Source: a bacterium
Lineage (GTDB): Bacteria > UBA10199 > 2-02-FULL-50-16 > JAJFLM01
DNA: 64,000 bases
Direction: 5' to 3'
NCBI GenBank assembly: GCA_965216315.1
Contig: CBDCFN010000016.1
Span: 544,001 to 608,000 of the forward strand
This document shows positions 24,001-33,000 of this stretch, one piece after another. Made by a program: the position numbers. Each line of letters starts with the position of its first letter. Position 1 is the stretch's first letter.

Positions 24001-27000
24001 ACGATGGATGTTTCTACCGTCAAGAGGGTGCTGATTATCGATGATGATCCGGCCTTGCTAGATGTCCTCAGCCGGCGTGTTCAAAAGAACGCTTATTCCT
24101 GTGAAACGGCACAATCTGCCTCGGAAGGCCTTGAAAAGGCGATGCAAACGCCGCCCGATCTTATTCTCCTCGACCTGATGATGCCAAGGATGAGTGGTTT
24201 TGGTTTTCTGCGCGAACTCAAGCGCCACAAAGAGCTGGCCCATATCCCCGTCGTCGTCCTGACCGGTCTCGGCGATGATGAGGTCGCCAAAGAATCGATG
24301 GACTTAGGCGCTGTGGGGTATCTGACCAAGGACTGTGATCATGGCGAACTCATGCACCTCGTTCAACAACATGCGTGAAGAACGACAGCCTTGGATCTGA
24401 GCTATTCTTGGAGGTCTATTGTGCTTGAGGTAACGGCATTTCGGTGAGGCCGAGTTTCTTGAACAATGCCTGATCGGCATCGACTTCCGGATTTGGCGTG
24501 GTGAGGAGTTTTTCACCGGCAAAAATGGAATTGGCGCCGGCCATAAAGGCCAAGGCCTGGGCCTCATCGGACATGGTGCTGCGTCCGGCACTCAAGCGGA
24601 CCATAGATTGAGGCATAATAATCCGTGCCGTCGCGATGCAGCGGACGAGTTCAATCACGTTCATTTCTATCTCGTCGGCAAGGGGCGTGCCTTCGACGCG
24701 GACCAGGCGATTGATCGGGACACTGTTGGGGTGTGGGTCTTGAGTCGCGAGCTCTTGCAGGAGGCCGATGCGATCCGCCCGATCTTCCCCCAAGCCGATA
24801 ATGCCGCCGCAACAGACTTGGAGACCCGCATTGCGGACGTTGTCGAGGGTGGTCAGGCGATCTTCATAGCATCGTGTAGTAATAACTTCTTGGTAAAATT
24901 CCGGGGAGGTATCGAGGTTGTGATTATAGGCCGTGAGTCCTGCCTCTTTAAGTCGTGTGGCCTGCGCAGGGGTTAGCATGCCCAGGGTGCAGCAAACTTC
25001 CATCTCAAGGGCAGCGACTCCGCGCACCATTTCGAGGATCTGATCGAAATCCGGTCCGTCTCTGACTTCGCGCCACGCGGCCCCCATGCAAAAGCGGGTT
25101 GAGCCTGAATCCTTCGCCGCGCGGGCCTTATCCAAGACTTCGTCGAGACCCAGCAGGGGTTCCCGTTCCAGGCCGGTTTGATAGCGCGATGATTGCGGGC
25201 AGTAAGAGCAGTCTTCCGAACAGCCTCCGGTTTTGATCGACAGGAGGGTCGATTTCTGGACTTCACCGCTGACGAAAAATTCACGATGCCGGGTCTGGGC
25301 CTCGTAGAGGAGGTCCAGGAGGGGCCGTGTGTAGATGGCTTCAATTTCTTCTCGAGTCCAGTCGTAGCGCAGTGTTTCCATAAGCTCCCTAGATTATTCA
25401 AACATCGGCAGCTAAGTCCAGGAGTTGCTTGCTAATTTTGAGGAGGTCGCATCACTTCAAGGAATTGCCAGAACCCCCTTGATTGAACGGGGATAAATCA
25501 GTAGAAACAGGCCCGGGGGCAGGGAATCCACGAAGATTATGGAAGCGCAAAGCAATACACAGGTTCGGTCATTTTCACTCGGTCTGACGCCGGTCGACAA
25601 ATTCTTTTTGGCCTACAACGTCCTGGTTTTGGCCCTCGTCGGTGTTTTTGGAAGCGAACGTCCTGATTTTACGTCGCTCATCGTTTGGCATGTGACTCTT
25701 ACGGGACTCACGTTTTTGCTCGCCATCTATGAGATGCGGCAGGGGGGTAGGATCGCCGCGTTTCTACGCTTCGCCTATCCCGCGGTTTTGTTGCCCTTTG
25801 TTCACTACGAGTCGGGGCTCTTAAGTCCGCTGGTAACCGACGGCTACTTTGATGCATGGTTTGTTTCTATTGATCGTTTTTTGTTTGGGCGCGATCTTTA
25901 CGCTTGGTTGGCTCCCAATGTTGGTGGCCTCGTCATGAATGAAATCATGAATGCTGCCTATTTTGCTTTTTATTTGCTGATACTGGGCACGCTATTGGGG
26001 ACTTATTTTTGGCGTCGGCATTGGACGGGCGAACTGATTTTTGTGCTGACCTTATGTCTCTATGCGCATTATTTCTTTTTCATTGTTTTTCCCGTCGTCG
26101 GTCCGACAGATTTGCGCCCTGCCCTTTTTGCGGCCCAGGAAGGCTGGATCACACCGTTTGTTTATAACGTCGTGGCCAGCGGCGATACGGCCGGGGGAGC
26201 CTTTCCTTCCAGCCATTGCGCCGGCGCCGTACTGCTCAATTGTTATGCCGGGCGCATCTTTGGAAAGAAGATAGGCTGGCTGCTAGCGCCGCTATCGGTG
26301 TTGATTGTTCTCTCCAGCATCTATCTCTCGATGCATTACGTGATCGATAGTATTGCCGGGATTATTGTTGGTGCTTTTTTCTTTTGGTATGGTCCGCGGG
26401 TTTACCGAATGTTGAGAAAAGAAGAGACTTAATATGGACTTACTCAACGAAATCGCCAGTTGGACGACGCAATTTGAGGCCGGCGGCCATGATGTGCTCG
26501 CGAAGGCCGAGCAATGGCAACTCTATGATCAGGTGTCCGGCACCGGACTCTATCCTTATTTTCAGCCACTTGATGAAAACCAAGGTCCGGTAGCGCGCTA
26601 CGATGGCCGCGAGGTCCTGATGTTGGGATCGAATAATTACATTGGACTGACGACGCATCCCAAGGTGCGGGAAGCGGCGGTTGAGGCCGTGCGCAAATAC
26701 GGGACCGGCATGACGGGATCACGTTTTCTCAATGGGAGTATGCGCCTTCATGAAGAACTGGAAGGAAAACTCGCCTCGTTTTTAGAAAAAGAGGCGGCCT
26801 TGGTTTTTACGACGGGCTATCAAGCCAATCTGGGTATGTTGACCGCGCTGATTAACAAACACTCGGTGGCGGTTGTCGACCGCTTTGCCCATGCGAGCAT
26901 TCATGATGGCTGTCGTCTGATGGAAGGGGAGAATCTCAAATTTGAGCATAATGACGTGAACGACCTGGCACAGGTGTTGGCATCGATCCCGAAAGATAAA

Positions 27001-30000: not shown

Positions 30001-33000
30001 TTTGTCGCTCCTCGTGAAAGGAATTTGTTGACTGCGATTGAGAGAGCGACGAAACAGAAAATTACTCCAATGAAATTGCCGAGCAAAGAGGCCGCATCTC
30101 AAAAGAGACGGGAGCAATTTAAGGAGCAAGTTCAAGTAATTCTTGATCAAGGGAATCTTCAGTCTCAGTTTCGTATCCTGGAGCAATATCAGCAAGAGTG
30201 GGGAATGACCCTTAAAGAGCTTGCAGCAGTATTATTGAAACTGCTCGAAAATAAAAATCCAGTTTTTAAAGAGAGAGGAAAGGCTGGGCCCGCAGAAGAA
30301 CGTAAACCGCGACGACCTAAGTACGGTGCTAAAAATAAAAAAATACCCAAGCAGAAAAAGAAATCATCTACTCGAAATAAAAAGACATCGGTTAATAAGA
30401 AGAGGCGGGGAAAAAGAGGAAGAATGAAAAGAATCACTGACTGACAACTTCGCTGCAATCACATCTATCTGGTGCCTGAAGCGGCTCCATATTGCGAATC
30501 TTGTTTTAGAAGTTCTGCAAAGGGCGTTAAGTAAATTCCCTTAAGAGTTTGCCATTTCTCATCTGAGAGCTCTTTGATTCCGTATGTTATAAATTGATCT
30601 TCTGGTTTGATATAGGTTTTGAAAATCCGATCCCAGAACGAAAAGCCAGCACTGTAGTTACTATCATGTTCGCTTCTATCGACAGAATGGTGAATGCGGT
30701 GCATACGAGGTGTGACAAGTAGCCACCGCAATAATTGATCTTGCTTTTCACTTATTGAAATATTGCTGTGATGAAATGGAGTGATGACATGGATGAAGAT
30801 GAAATAAGCGATAGCATGGGTACCTCCGATACCAATAAAACCGAATGCAAGGGTTTTAATGAAAGTGGCGATTAACGCTTCAGCCGGATGAAAGCGAAAG
30901 GCTGTAGAGCCATCGACGAGCTGGTCGCTATGATGGGCGCGATGTAGTTTCCAGAGGAGAGGGAGCTTGTGATGTATTATGTGTAACCCGTAAACGACGA
31001 GATCCATAAGAAGAATGGTGAGAATGAATTCCAACCATTCTGGCCATTCGACCCAGTAACGCATTCCTAAATTGCTGTGCCGTTGTACCCAATAGGCAAC
31101 CCCTAGTGATCCTGCGAGTTCTAAGCTGGTGATTCCTTGGTTAATTACTTTAACGAAGAGATTTCGACTGATATGTCGAATGGCAGATTCACTCCGTTTG
31201 CGGAAAGGATAAAGGGCCTCCAGTCCTGCTAATAGGCAGACGTATGCAAGACTGGAGGCAACAATGAAGTTAAACGTTGTCAAGCTCTATCGGGTATAGG
31301 TCTTAAATGTGCTATTAGGCATGACCCTCTTTTTGCCACTGAACTTCGCTTCAAGTTCTTTAATTTTGTAAAAAAGGAAGTGACTGAACGCTAATTGATA
31401 GTCAATGTCACTTTTTAATTCAAGGGCTTGCTTATCGGTTTGCTGAGCCCAGACAGTGAACTCTCTTTTTAGCTGGTCATCATTCTTGAATTTGTAGCCA
31501 GCCCAATTACCTAATGACGCGACTATATCTATCTGACCCGCTGGTGATCCATAGTAATAAGCGCGAATTGTGCTTGAGCTTAGAGTAATAGCTCCCAAGA
31601 CGAAGCCTCCGATGAATGTGACGGCTAGAACAAGTGATTTAAAACGAAATTGCATGATTCCTCCTCAGCTAGATACAGATGGTGTTAAGTTGTGACTGTA
31701 GATTGTACCTGATCAGCCTGGCTCCAAGCGCCAATGCCGAATTGGCTGGCGTTGACGCGTTGTGGCATTAAATTGACAGGGTGGCGGAGATAGGCTAGAA
31801 CCGGCCGGTTATGCCCAAGGGCCTCCGCCATAGAAGCGTGGTTTTCCTACTCTTTCTCGCCATTACGGGGGGCAATGCCTTGCCCTACGCCCATGCCTTT
31901 CAAGAGGCGACCAAGGTCCAGTTCAGCTGTCATTGCTGTGATCATGGTAAGGCTGACTGTGATCACTGTGCTCGTTTTGGTCACAAGCTGGACGAAAAGG
32001 CCAAGCAGAAGCAAGCACCGGTCTTTGAGGCGACGCCTTGTTCCAAGCAGCAGCAAAAGGCGCAGACCTATTCGTTTTTAATGGAACCGTTTTTACAACC
32101 GCAACTTAATGAATTGAGTTGCGAGTGGAGTTCCTGGGAGCTGTCGAAGGCAACCGGGCACTTATCATCCTATCTGTTGATTCCACCGACTCCACCGCCG
32201 CAAATCCTTTCCTGAGTTTAAGAAGATTTTGGCGAATATTAATTAACAACGGAGCAAGGAATGCGCGCATTTTCGGTGTGCTGCGCGTTGTTGGTACTCG
32301 TCGTTTTTGTACCGACCGCGCAGGCGCATCATCCGGGCCATGCCGCGTCCAGTCGTGGAAGTGGGCAATACAGTCCCTTTCTGCTGGGATCCGGTGGTCC
32401 CAAGACAAGACTGACCTATACCTTTGACTGGAGTCATCTGGACAACAGTGCGGGTGACGTCTACCTGAACCAAATAGAAGGAGAATACTCCATCGTTGAC
32501 GGGTTCAGTGTCCTCTTGCGCGTGCCTATCTTGTCGCTGCAATTTAATTTTCGCCCTAGCAAGACGGGGATAGGGGATATTGCCTTCGGGATCAAAGGAC
32601 GTTTATTTCAAGACGATAAACACAGTTTGATGCTCGGCAATGATGTCTCTTTTCCAACCGGCAATCGAAACAATGGGACGGGGTCCGGAGCGGTGATTAC
32701 CTCACCGTATCTGGCTTATCAGTACGATTTTGGGTTCCTGCAAGCTTATGGGAGCGTGGGGACTAGTTTTGAGCTGGACAATAATCCTGAGCCGTCATTG
32801 TTGCCGAGCGCCGGTGTATCTATCCCGCTCTTGAAGCAAGGTATTCCACTAACCGCCTTTGTAAGCCTGCGTGGGCAAATTCTGTTCGCGGATGAGACCT
32901 TTCAACGAGGGAGCAGCAAAGTTTATCTCATGCCGGGGCTCATTATTTATCCTCTGGAAAATAAGCGGCTGAGTCTCGTCGTTTCGGGAACCGTCTCGAT

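Follow-up and report, generated by a model that had tools for sequence, protein, structure and literature searches.

Thermus/Deinococcus and Thermotoga are LPS-free diderm phyla, and two LPS-lacking diderms, Sphingomonas paucimobilis (Kawasaki 1994) and Sorangium cellulosum So ce56 (Keck 2011), reportedly bear sphingolipids; those of Sphingomonas have glycosyl head groups. The sphingolipid of known LPS-lacking sphingolipid bacteria is described as a major outer-membrane lipid, which can be essential (PMC11324152). The ceramide pathway of Caulobacter crescentus is described as Spt-bCerS-CerR (PMC11087976; PMC11334938; PMC9393093), a triad whose CerR is homologous to NDUFA9 (PMC11334938; PMC11087976), in a bacterium that has LPS and exports sphingolipid by LptF/G/C paralogues with LptB (10.64898/2026.04.12.717747), and the inositol lipid cluster of Bacteroides thetaiotaomicron is assigned to BT_1521-BT_1526 (Heaver et al. 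2022, PMC9246714). Here we analyze a 64,000-nucleotide stretch of DNA (the window) from a bacterium of phylum UBA10199. With moderate confidence, we read it as carrying the ceramide-backbone operon of an LPS-free diderm whose inositol phosphoceramide product would reach the outer membrane.

A Candidate Ceramide-Backbone Operon

Three plus-strand genes form a tight operon at 25539-28801: a PAP2_3 membrane protein (P0121; 25539-26432, +, 297 aa; Pfam PAP2_3 52.6 bits, cut-off 27), serine palmitoyltransferase (Spt; 26434-27672, +, 412 aa), a member of the alpha-oxoamine synthases (AOS), and a bCerS-type tandem-GNAT N-acyltransferase (P0001; 27656-28801, +, 381 aa) recognized from its predicted fold. 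P0121 is the first gene, its stop lying 2 nt upstream of the Spt start, and the start of the bCerS-type gene overlaps the end of Spt by 17 nt. A pathway-unrelated DEAD-box helicase follows (28951-30444, +). A BioB gene is the operon's divergent neighbor, and a nearby MMPL transporter shows no covariation with Spt presence.

Spt retains the PLP-lysine motif GTFSKSLAS in alignment and would convert serine and an acyl thioester to 3-ketodihydrosphingosine in a PLP-dependent reaction. Its best NCBIfam model is SerpalmtaseCFB (469.5 bits, below the cut-off of 640), ahead of bioF (366) and Kbl (361). Among PDB sequences, Sphingobacterium SPT (3a2b/8guh) ranks on top with 377 bits, Sphingomonas SPTs reach 277–282, cysteate-C-fatty-acyltransferase 250, KBL about 245, and BioF about 200; one Thermus AONS/KBL, at 291 bits, is an exception to this ranking in that it exceeds the Sphingomonas SPTs.

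P0001 has no match in Pfam or NCBIfam. Its predicted model (pLDDT 90.1) adopts a tandem-GNAT fold, and the top Foldseek matches are amine-acting tandem GNATs (7q3a, 5kf1, 2wpw, and MshD 1ozp). A bCerS-like gene adjoins Spt in 20/20 other phylum genomes in which the locus was examined and lies at most 4 kb from an Spt-like gene at 32/80 loci of other phyla, and the two genes co-occur in 40 of the 43 genomes holding either one. From its fold and synteny, P0001 is probably a bCerS-type acyltransferase of the long-chain base. The genome-wide survey's note had proposed that both Spt and bCerS are encoded, and at the family level PDB scores, fold, and synteny agree.

CerR does not occur in this genome's operon. 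Elsewhere, an Epimerase-family (CerR-like) gene stands after or near Spt-bCerS at 9/16 loci, and the order Spt-bCerS-CerR-like is found at 6/8 loci from more distant families, which fits the published triad and the NDUFA9 homology of CerR (PMC11334938; PMC11087976). The best match here to operon-encoded CerR-like proteins is an NDUFA9-like reductase at C15:111266-112240. It is the genome's top match for 7/7 such queries (110–159 bits, compared with 56–94 bits for the runner-up with the same seven), at just 28–32% identity, and we treat it as the CerR candidate. Downstream of the operon, a fatty-acid hydroxylase superfamily protein (30465-31283, −, 272 aa; Pfam FA_hydroxylase 93.1 bits; NCBIfam OlsE 80 bits, cut-off 475) is tentatively a candidate ceramide or long-chain-base hydroxylase; its link to the operon is one of position in this genome alone, because an FA_hydroxylase gene adjoins Spt-bCerS at 0/16 related loci.

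Missing Lipid A and Lpt Genes

The genome spans 2.96 Mb in 16 contigs, with 98.31% completeness and 0.38% contamination. We searched it with Pfam and NCBIfam profiles of the families named here. LpxC, LpxB, the KdtA N-domain, the LpxA C-domain, LptD_N/OstA, and LptC gave zero matches, LpxK and the LpxD N-domain gave chance-level matches only (E = 0.43 and E = 0.63, respectively), and the genome had no match to LpxA, LptD, or LptF/G within the searches of 93 phylum genomes. In all, ten independent lipid A/Lpt families are negative in this 98%-complete genome. Its outer-membrane set comprises BamA, TamA/TamB, LolA, MlaD, SurA, and porins: profile searches found four Omp85 matches, TamB adjoining a 909-aa Omp85 protein, LolA, two MlaD, a SurA-like protein, a BBP2 porin, and Wzi, and the window itself encodes ExbB/ExbD and a LolA_like protein. 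The survey's description of a diderm without lipid A or Lpt genes that keeps BamA, TamB, LolA, and Mla therefore stands.

The pattern extends across the phylum sample of 93 genomes, 63 of them high-quality (at least 90% completeness and at most 5% contamination). Four families were searched over all 93, among which are one single-contig and one 3-contig genome. LpxC occurs in 0/93, as the survey had reported; LpxA in 0/93 above cut-off (top score 94 bits, cut-off 231); LptD in 0/93 above cut-off (a single match at E = 0.0075), with a model that is insensitive, since among the controls it detected only the LptD of E. coli and Caulobacter; and LptF/G in 1/93, a partial match of 27.9 bits. The same searches found Omp85 in 92/93 genomes at E of about 1e-60. 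As positive controls, the LpxC, LpxA, and LptF/G models detected distant Synechococcus and Bacteroides, and the LptF/G model also detected Thermus, Deinococcus, and Thermotoga. These results support the conclusion that lipid A and Lpt genes are undetectable in all 93 genomes, with Bam retained.

Ceramide Genes in Roughly Half of the Phylum

Counted at 326 bits or more, Spt is present in 41/93 genomes, and bCerS-like genes are present in 42/93. One or the other occurs in 43/93 (30/63 high-quality) from 15/24 families, with 46–77% identity across those 15 families where Spt-bCerS is present, while both are missing from 50/93 (33/63 high-quality), including nine whole families. Because these 50 LPS-free genomes have no sphingolipid genes, ceramide lipids are dispensable for an LPS-free outer membrane in the phylum. 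Ceramide synthesis characterizes roughly half of its lineages. MIPS (81/93) and a PIP-synthase-like gene (87/93) are more widespread; LPS loss and inositol phospholipid synthesis genes are the general features at phylum level. An AUR1-like gene occurs in 29/93 genomes, five of which (one a single-contig, 97%-complete genome) have neither Spt nor bCerS; the encoded enzyme may therefore sometimes use an acceptor other than ceramide. Spt, bCerS, AUR1-like gene, and MIPS come together in 21/93, this genome included. The survey's broader claim, that the whole phylum builds its outer leaflet from inositol phosphoceramide, is not borne out by these counts.

Inositol Lipid Genes and a Proposed Pathway

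An AUR1-type PAP2_3 protein (P0122; C16:456223-457095) aligns to yeast AUR1 over residues 21–279 (E = 7e-21), retains the PAPPWY, PSxH, and HHYFxD motifs, and scores 200.6 bits with NF052609 (PhinosDhcerSyn; cut-off 480). MIPS (inositol-phosphate synthase; C16:459643-460956; 332 bits) lies three genes away, and a PIP-synthase-like gene reaches 152 bits with the BT_1523 model (cut-off 350). All NCBIfam equivalog cut-offs are missed (Spt 469.5/640, PI-DHC synthase 200.6/480, PIP synthase 152/350), and the survey's MIPS and phosphoinositol-dihydroceramide synthase are upheld as family-level homologues. P0122 orthologues adjoin or neighbor Spt-bCerS, and 4/5 such loci carry an LPG_synthase_TM gene. 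PgsA and PssA also score above cut-offs in this genome.

On sequence grounds, the host probably makes inositol phosphoceramide. Spt would condense serine with an acyl thioester, the overlapping bCerS-type tandem GNAT would N-acylate the product, and the NDUFA9-like candidate encoded outside the operon would reduce the 3-keto group. P0122 would then place phospho-inositol on the ceramide, with inositol supplied by MIPS and the PIP-synthase-like CDP-alcohol transferase. The lipid would finally move to the outer membrane, where it may occupy the outer leaflet and stand in for LPS. Lpt is excluded as its export route by the lack of any LptF/G, LptC, OstA, or LptD family member in the genome.

The operon's own PAP2_3 protein, P0121, may either transfer a head group or act as a lipid phosphatase. 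It matches Pfam PAP2 (36.7 bits) and, weakly, PAP2_C, retains PSxH and HYxxD motifs, and has no match to NF052609 at E ≤ 1e-3; it shares 38% identity with P0122 over only 65 aa, and its sole PDB sequence match is PgpB/YodM (E = 0.04). Searches of the other 92 phylum genomes (top match 35% over about 120 aa) and of the genome_contigs database turned up no orthologue, and P0121 is absent upstream of Spt at 11/11 related loci. The lack of a phylum orthologue rules P0121 out as the general head-group enzyme.

Alternative Explanations

One alternative is a lipid A/LPS pathway too divergent or non-homologous for profiles to detect, and the reliance on Pfam and NCBIfam models, with an LptD model that found just two control diderms, leaves some room for it. 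We consider it extremely improbable, given ten negative families in a 98%-complete genome and four over 93 genomes (one partial LptF/G match aside), by searches that recover Omp85 in 92/93 and models for LpxC, LpxA, and LptF/G that recover distant controls. Scarcely more credible is an Spt-like enzyme that yields another alpha-oxoamine, for example a cysteate-derived sulfonolipid precursor or an intermediate of biotin or threonine metabolism. Scores below the NCBIfam SPT cut-offs, the adjacent BioB, and the 250 bits of cysteate-C-fatty-acyltransferase would suit it, but characterized SPTs score higher (277–377 bits) than that enzyme, KBL (the one Thermus AONS/KBL apart), or BioF, a second AOS paralogue (C15:144879-145982, 34% identity to Spt) can serve biotin or threonine metabolism, and linkage to bCerS-type and CerR-type genes recurs over this and other phyla.

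The remaining alternatives concern what the pathway makes and how much. The ceramide head group could be other than, or additional to, inositol phosphate, with the AUR1-like enzyme using another acceptor and P0121 installing or trimming, for example, ethanolamine-, glycerol-, or plain phosphate. The P0121 and Spt genes are translationally coupled, P0121 belongs to a family that includes IPC and sphingomyelin synthases, with motifs retained, and the AUR1-like gene sits 113 kb from the operon and recurs in the five Spt-less genomes. Yet P0121 is without an orthologue in any other phylum genome, AUR1-like orthologues directly adjoin Spt in other families, and P0122 is a clear AUR1 homologue with MIPS nearby, and we judge this reading unlikely. 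A stronger contender, though still one we doubt, is that sphingolipids are made but minor or conditional and that the outer leaflet consists mainly of other lipids (for instance, glycerophospholipids with inositol or other head groups, amino lipids, or lipids made by an NRPS-like cluster), as it necessarily does in the half of the phylum without Spt. The 50/93 genomes (33/63 high-quality) without Spt and bCerS likewise lack LpxC, LpxA, LptD, and LptF/G and retain Omp85, MIPS and PIP-synthase-like genes are far commoner than Spt, PgsA and PssA are present here, and a lipid-type NRPS cluster lies in the window at 49859-60639. Against this, Spt-bCerS is strongly conserved where present, and the sphingolipid of bacteria known to lack LPS and make one is a major outer-membrane lipid that can be essential (PMC11324152).

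Comparison with Known Systems

As in the Thermus/Deinococcus and Thermotoga controls, LpxC is absent at phylum level and Omp85 is present; those controls still match LptF_LptG and LptD_N/OstA, whereas this genome matches neither. The LptC family is likewise matched in Deinococcus and Thermotoga but not in this genome. With Sphingomonas and Sorangium, the genome shares an LPS-less outer membrane and an Spt-dependent sphingolipid as alternative amphiphile, here predicted from genes. Those are single genera in LPS-bearing phyla, whereas here no lipid A/Lpt gene is found over a 93-genome phylum (one partial LptF/G match), with sphingolipid genes in only 43/93 of its LPS-free genomes; the predicted head group is inositol phosphate rather than glycosyl.

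The backbone genes resemble those of Caulobacter crescentus in their soluble Spt, non-membrane acyltransferase, and NDUFA9-like reductase, clustered in related loci. Unlike in Caulobacter, the reductase lies outside the operon in this genome, no dedicated ACP or ACP synthetase was seen in the operon, and the LptF/G/C export family is absent. The inositol genes differ from the Bacteroides cluster in being scattered (456 kb, 460 kb, and 1604 kb) and below NCBIfam cut-offs, with no HAD-type PIP phosphatase identified in this genome, and Bacteroides has LPS where this genome has no LPS genes. They nevertheless parallel B. thetaiotaomicron in homologues of its AUR1-homologous PI-DHC synthase, MIPS, and PIP synthase. 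As in the Bacteroides cluster (PMC9246714), an LPG-synthase-TM-like gene adjoins the AUR1-like gene at related loci L109-L112, and the fused NTP-transferase/CDP-alcohol transferase here resembles the alternative CDP-inositol route proposed for it.

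Genes for Lipid A and Lpt Are Missing and Outer-Membrane Genes Are Kept

Profile searches of the genome under study (98.31% complete, 0.38% contaminated) bear out the statement in the genome-wide survey's note that it lacks lipid A and Lpt genes: six families (LpxC, LpxB, the KdtA N-domain, the LpxA C-domain, LptD_N/OstA, and LptC) gave no match, and LpxK (E = 0.43) and the LpxD N-domain (E = 0.63) gave matches at chance level alone. LpxC is also missing phylum-wide, as claimed there, with 0/93 genomes of UBA10199 matching; 63 of these are high-quality (≥90% complete and ≤5% contaminated), and the 93 include one single-contig and one 3-contig genome. 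In the same set LpxA exceeded its cut-off in 0/93 genomes (best 94 bits versus 231), as did LptD (0/93), for which the model is insensitive and positive in just 2 controls, and LptF/G gave a partial 27.9-bit match in 1/93. Omp85, searched by the same method, is present in 92/93 genomes and 63/63 high-quality genomes, mostly at E ~1e-60. BamA, TamB, LolA, and Mla, among the outer-membrane machinery that the note had listed, were likewise found in the genome under study, which encodes a 775-aa BamA-like protein and three further Omp85 matches, TamB adjoining a 909-aa Omp85, LolA, two MlaD proteins, SurA-like proteins, a BBP2 porin, and Wzi/Wzz/SLBB capsule export, with ExbB/ExbD and a LolA_like protein inside the window.

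Thermus, Deinococcus, and Thermotoga are LPS-free diderm lineages. As control genomes, all three matched LptF_LptG and OstA, and Deinococcus and Thermotoga matched LptC. Since LPS-free controls still match Lpt families, the lineage studied here is more thoroughly stripped of Lpt components. Known from assembled DNA alone, it is by its genes a predicted LPS-free diderm, with LpxH, Kds, MsbA, and LptB lying outside the searches. Elsewhere in the genome (C16:395502-399114, locus L119), genes for an LPG_synthase_TM protein, a Wzi-like outer-membrane protein, and a CDP-alcohol transferase stand in a row, adjoined by Wzz and an SLBB (Wza-like) gene; this is a putative cluster for exporting a capsule or a lipid-linked polymer from a cell that lacks LPS.

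A Tight Operon Encodes a Predicted Serine Palmitoyltransferase and a Ceramide Synthase-Type Protein

Five ORFs in the window make up the region of interest. On the forward strand, a PAP2_3 membrane protein (P0121, 25539-26432, Pfam 52.6 bits) is followed by an alpha-oxoamine synthase (Spt, 26434-27672) that starts 2 nt after its stop, and by a 381-aa protein (P0001, 27656-28801) that overlaps Spt by 17 nt and has no match in Pfam or NCBIfam. This spacing and overlap argue that the three genes form a tight operon. After a 150-nt gap come a DEAD-box RNA helicase (28951-30444), which is unrelated to the operon's pathway, and, on the opposite strand, a fatty-acid hydroxylase (30465-31283, 93 bits). 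Neither is kept beside the Spt-bCerS pair in 16 related loci, and we rejected both as conserved operon members.

The divergent upstream neighbor of the operon is BioB (24416-25381, exceeding the TIGR00433 cut-off), a position that would invite reading Spt as the biotin enzyme BioF. We rejected that assignment on two lines of evidence. Among PDB sequences the best score of Spt, 377 bits, is to the serine palmitoyltransferase (SPT) of Sphingobacterium multivorum (3a2b, 8guh), followed by Thermus AONS/KBL (291 bits), Sphingomonas SPTs (277-282), cysteate acyltransferase (250), KBL (~245), BioF (~200), and ALAS (~200), so that it is closer to characterized SPT (3a2b) than to BioF, KBL, or ALAS. 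The genome also holds a second alpha-oxoamine synthase paralogue (C15:144879-145982, 34% identity to Spt), and the neighboring BioB therefore does not force a BioF assignment. The 412-aa Spt has the alpha-oxoamine synthase fold (Pfam Aminotran_1_2, 196.6 bits), and alignment shows its GTFSKSLAS motif, whose lysine we take to be the PLP-binding one, to be identical to that of Sphingobacterium SPT 8guh. Its best NCBIfam model is SerpalmtaseCFB (469.5 bits), which outscores the bioF and Kbl models. All three SPT equivalog models, made for CFB, beta- and alpha-proteobacterial clades, score it below cut-off (NF047600, 469.5 versus 640; NF047599, 394.7 versus 500; NF047603, 316.1 versus 670). The note's report of an Spt gene here is upheld by the leading PDB score and the kept motif; the protein is, on sequence, an SPT-clade alpha-oxoamine synthase, predicted to condense serine with an acyl-CoA or acyl-ACP.

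P0001 has more than 7,500 relatives in databases, some carrying the name N-acetyltransferase/GNAT. A structure model built from 19 sequences (pLDDT 90.1) has an all-soluble tandem-GNAT fold, and its top structural matches (7q3a, 5kf1, 2wpw, and the mycothiol synthase 1ozp; E = 1e-15 to 1e-11) are tandem-GNAT enzymes that acylate amines. A P0001-like gene adjoins Spt in 20/20 other phylum genomes read, one of these loci being cut by a contig end. Outside the phylum, 32/80 loci have an Spt-like gene no more than 4 kb from the P0001 relative, including Myxococcota, Dehalococcoidia, Ignavibacteriae, and Rhodohalobacter, and relatives with 37-45% identity occur in records of Sphingomonadales and other Alphaproteobacteria. 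We classify P0001 as a putative bacterial ceramide synthase (bCerS) type protein, a membership assigned by fold, context, and distribution and not by alignment to Caulobacter CCNA_01212.

Other families of the phylum often carry a third gene. Among loci of more distant families, 6/8 have Spt, then the P0001-like gene, then one for a ~325-aa Epimerase-family protein, and in 3/8 closer loci an Epimerase-family gene comes after or near the pair, giving 9/16 loci overall with such a CerR-like gene adjoining or nearby. The set corresponds to the published bacterial triad Spt-bCerS-CerR, in which CerR is described as NDUFA9-like (PMC11334938, PMC11087976). The operon studied here contains no CerR. 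For 7/7 operon-encoded CerR-like proteins tried, the top match in this genome is one 325-aa protein (C15:111266-112240), itself scoring 118.8 bits with Epimerase, and the matches reach 110-159 bits and 28-32% identity; the next-best match for the same queries reaches 56-94 bits, and the operon CerR-like proteins themselves share just 27-45% identity. The neighbors of the C15 gene (NamZ, phosphomannomutase, PdxA, and SurA) are uninformative on lipids. This gene is a plausible candidate for the CerR of the genome.

Inositol Phosphoceramide Synthesis Is Plausible in This Genome

The candidate head-group enzyme is a second PAP2_3 protein, P0122 (290 aa, C16:456223-457095). It matches the NCBIfam phosphoinositol dihydroceramide (PI-DHC) synthase model PhinosDhcerSyn (NF052609) at 200.6 bits against a cut-off of 480, over its full length (residues 16-287 of 290 versus 16-289 of 305). 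It also matches yeast AUR1 (9vj3; E = 6.8e-21, residues 21-279 versus 58-311), the catalytic subunit of the yeast inositol phosphoceramide (IPC) synthase. Aligned motifs in P0122 and AUR1 are PAPPWY, PSMH/PSLH (PSxH), and HHYFID/HHYFVD (HHYFxD), and we take the residues of the latter two to be catalytic. Three genes away lies an inositol-phosphate synthase (MIPS, 437 aa, 332 bits). Seven CDP-alcohol transferases are encoded, with PgsA and PssA among them exceeding cut-offs. Another, at C16:1603809-1604648, is PIP-synthase-like, scoring 152 bits with the BT_1523 model and 143 bits with the archaetidylinositol-phosphate synthase model, both below cut-off. No PIP phosphatase was identified in the genome. 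Given P0122, MIPS, and the CDP-alcohol transferases, the parts for IPC are present at family level, and IPC synthesis is plausible from these genes. BT_1522, the AUR1 homologue of B. thetaiotaomicron, is needed there to make PI-DHC, and a route via CDP-inositol has been put forward as an alternative (PMC9246714). The genome also encodes a fused NTP-transferase/CDP-alcohol transferase (C16:966679-968103; L123:3679-5103) resembling archaeal IPCT/DIPPS (244 bits versus a cut-off of 580), which has a BBP2 porin and a radical-SAM gene as neighbors and could supply CDP-inositol for either a solute or a lipid.

P0121, inside the operon, is a different protein. It has no match to NF052609 and no AUR1 hit in the PDB sequence search, and its likeness to P0122 is limited to the C-terminal PSxH...HYxxD stretch (38% over 65 aa). 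Orthologues were found neither in the other 92 phylum genomes nor in the species-genome collection, which rules P0121 out as a general head-group enzyme; it is missing upstream of Spt in 11/11 related loci, and the Atlas annotates it just as "PAP2_3 family". P0121 is a lineage-specific addition to the operon.

Ceramide Genes Occur in About Half of the Phylum

Searching the phylum with Spt gave a clear score gap: 41 genomes score ≥326 bits (≥41% identity), and the remainder score ≤288 bits, matches that are BioF/Kbl-like. Spt is thus defined in 41/93 genomes (30/63 high-quality) and a bCerS-like gene in 42/93 (29/63). Both occur in 40 genomes (29 high-quality), either in 43 (30 high-quality), and neither in 50 (33 high-quality); by family, sphingolipid genes are found in 15/24. 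MIPS is present in 81/93 genomes (59/63) and a PIP-synthase-like gene in 87/93 (61/63). AUR1-like genes are found in 29/93 (19/63), and Spt, bCerS, AUR1-like, and MIPS together in 21/93 (15/63). AUR1-like genes are not restricted to ceramide-pathway genomes: 24/29 have Spt or bCerS, and five (G004, G008, G023, G055, and G056) have neither. One of these five, G055, is a single contig at 97% completeness, and in G023 the AUR1-like gene adjoins MIPS.

These counts identify LPS loss and inositol phospholipid synthesis as phylum-wide traits; roughly half of the lineages have the ceramide trait, and less than a quarter have the complete IPC set. Judging from gene content, outer membranes without LPS and without any sphingolipid evidently exist in the phylum. 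The note had interpreted UBA10199 as an LPS-free phylum whose outer leaflet is built from inositol phosphoceramides. Its LPS loss stands and IPC in the genome under study is plausible; extension to the whole phylum is wrong, with Spt/bCerS absent in 50/93 genomes and the full set in 21/93, and placement in the outer leaflet is putative.

The PIP-synthase-like gene is single-copy in its 87/93 genomes, at least 20 of which have it, by coordinates, within ~1-6 kb of a TamA-like, POTRA-rich Omp85 of ~900 aa. The order TamB, Omp85, PIP-synthase-like was found in 3/3 loci read (G001:C3, G012:C1, and G042:C1; L134-L136), and in 2/3 the last forms a fusion protein of ~770-800 aa with a type I phosphodiesterase domain of the alkaline-phosphatase superfamily. 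In the genome under study the gene and TamB/Omp85 are not adjacent. This linkage may tie inositol lipid synthesis to outer-membrane biogenesis.

Transport Candidates and Other Loci in the Window

Caulobacter depends on LptF/G/C paralogues together with LptB to export its sphingolipids (10.64898/2026.04.12.717747). This lineage, unlike Caulobacter, cannot use the LptF/G/C family for sphingolipids (LptB was outside the searches). An alternative exporter might be sought in an MMPL/HAE3 pump (34143-36461), whose gene closely follows the operon in a group (32261-36461) that also encodes a lipoprotein and a DUF3187-like barrel. The pump failed a synteny test, being absent from beside Spt-bCerS in 16 related loci. 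It has matches at E ≤ 1e-50 in 15/93 phylum genomes, and just two of these exceed 26% identity, G025 (42%) and G020 (30%), the latter lacking Spt. Because it does not co-vary with Spt, we dropped it as evidence of export. A separate MMPL gene inside a sister-family cluster (G041) is only a hint bearing on export.

The window holds two paralogous MMPL/HAE3 RND pumps, 42% identical (32261-36461 and 41285-48695), which are lineage-specific within the phylum. The first is accompanied by the DUF3187-like signal-peptide protein and the lipoprotein, the second by DUF1302-like, LolA_like, and two unknown proteins, and a sigma-54 two-component pair lies between the clusters. A lipid-type NRPS cluster (49859-60639 and 63189-63932) encodes A-PCP-acyltransferase (934 aa), A-PCP-C-A (1650 aa), and PCP-reductase (NAD_binding_4, 497 aa) proteins, two acyl-CoA dehydrogenases, and a PPTase; its product could be an amino lipid or an acylated amino-alcohol, and would then be a further membrane-lipid candidate for a cell without LPS. 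In a 2,444-aa ORF (7441-14775), Pfam shows nothing but a weak match to a protein kinase close to the C-terminus (26.7 bits, below cut-off).

Richer Clusters in Sister Families

An AUR1-like gene lies beside Spt-bCerS, or no more than a few kb away, in family f18 (L109-L111, L113) and in G041 (L112). An LPG_synthase_TM gene is present in 4/5 of those loci, the same kind of neighbor as Bacteroides BT_1521 (PMC9246714). These loci also carry, variously, GT4 and GT2 glycosyltransferases, polysaccharide deacetylases, and a desaturase. By Spt-bCerS in L113 (G072:C63, 7157-11774) are a GT2, a polysaccharide deacetylase, a GT4, the AUR1-like PAP2_3 gene, and, directly after it, a PIG-L-family deacetylase; in L112 (G041:C32, 8184-13158) GT2 and deacetylase are fused, and the gene for an 837-aa MMPL pump overlaps the start of the AUR1-like gene. 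The gene set of these two loci recalls eukaryotic GPI and glycosyl-IPC head-group synthesis. The sister-family clusters look like machinery for glycosylated inositol phosphoceramides. Searched by tblastn against the genome under study, four sister-cluster genes gave at most weak partial matches, none beside Spt or the AUR1-like gene, and the glycosyl-IPC interpretation therefore applies to sister families and not to the window's organism.

Discussion

Classical diderms are generally taken to carry LPS and its Lpt bridge almost without exception, and the known cases that lack them are limited to a small number of genera and certain deep-branching phyla. With 93 genomes at species level, a phylum that retains Bam, Tam, Lol, and Mla but has no Lpx, LptD, LptF/G, LptC, or OstA is a natural experiment. 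It raises the questions of what fills an outer membrane that lacks LPS and keeps it asymmetric, and by what route sphingolipids reach it in cells that do not have the LptFG paralogues on which Caulobacter depends. Ceramide genes are present in some sister lineages and missing from others, and this difference provides an internal control. Inositol phosphoceramide has been reported to date in Bacteroidetes and Myxococcus xanthus, and our results predict that a wider range of bacteria makes it. Searches of the LPS, LpxC, sphingolipid, and diderm literature found nothing on UBA10199, survey supplementary tables lying outside their scope. Among the listed papers that name the phylum, none concerns the cell envelope, judging from titles and abstract openings; supplements of envelope surveys, like that of the Spt survey in the Black Sea (PMC11334938), may list it.

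As a tentative overall model, to which we give rather little credence, the phylum as a whole would have an outer membrane without LPS or Lpt on an inositol-lipid base, to which about half of its lineages add ceramide anchors, with glycosyl-IPC as a surrogate for LPS and delivery by a non-Lpt route. The surrogate role is proposed because clusters in some lineages join Spt-bCerS-CerR, an AUR1-like gene, a PIG-L deacetylase, GT2/GT4, an MprF-like TM protein, and, in a single case, an RND pump. The suggested lipids would be glycosyl-inositol-phosphoceramides like those of plants and fungi.
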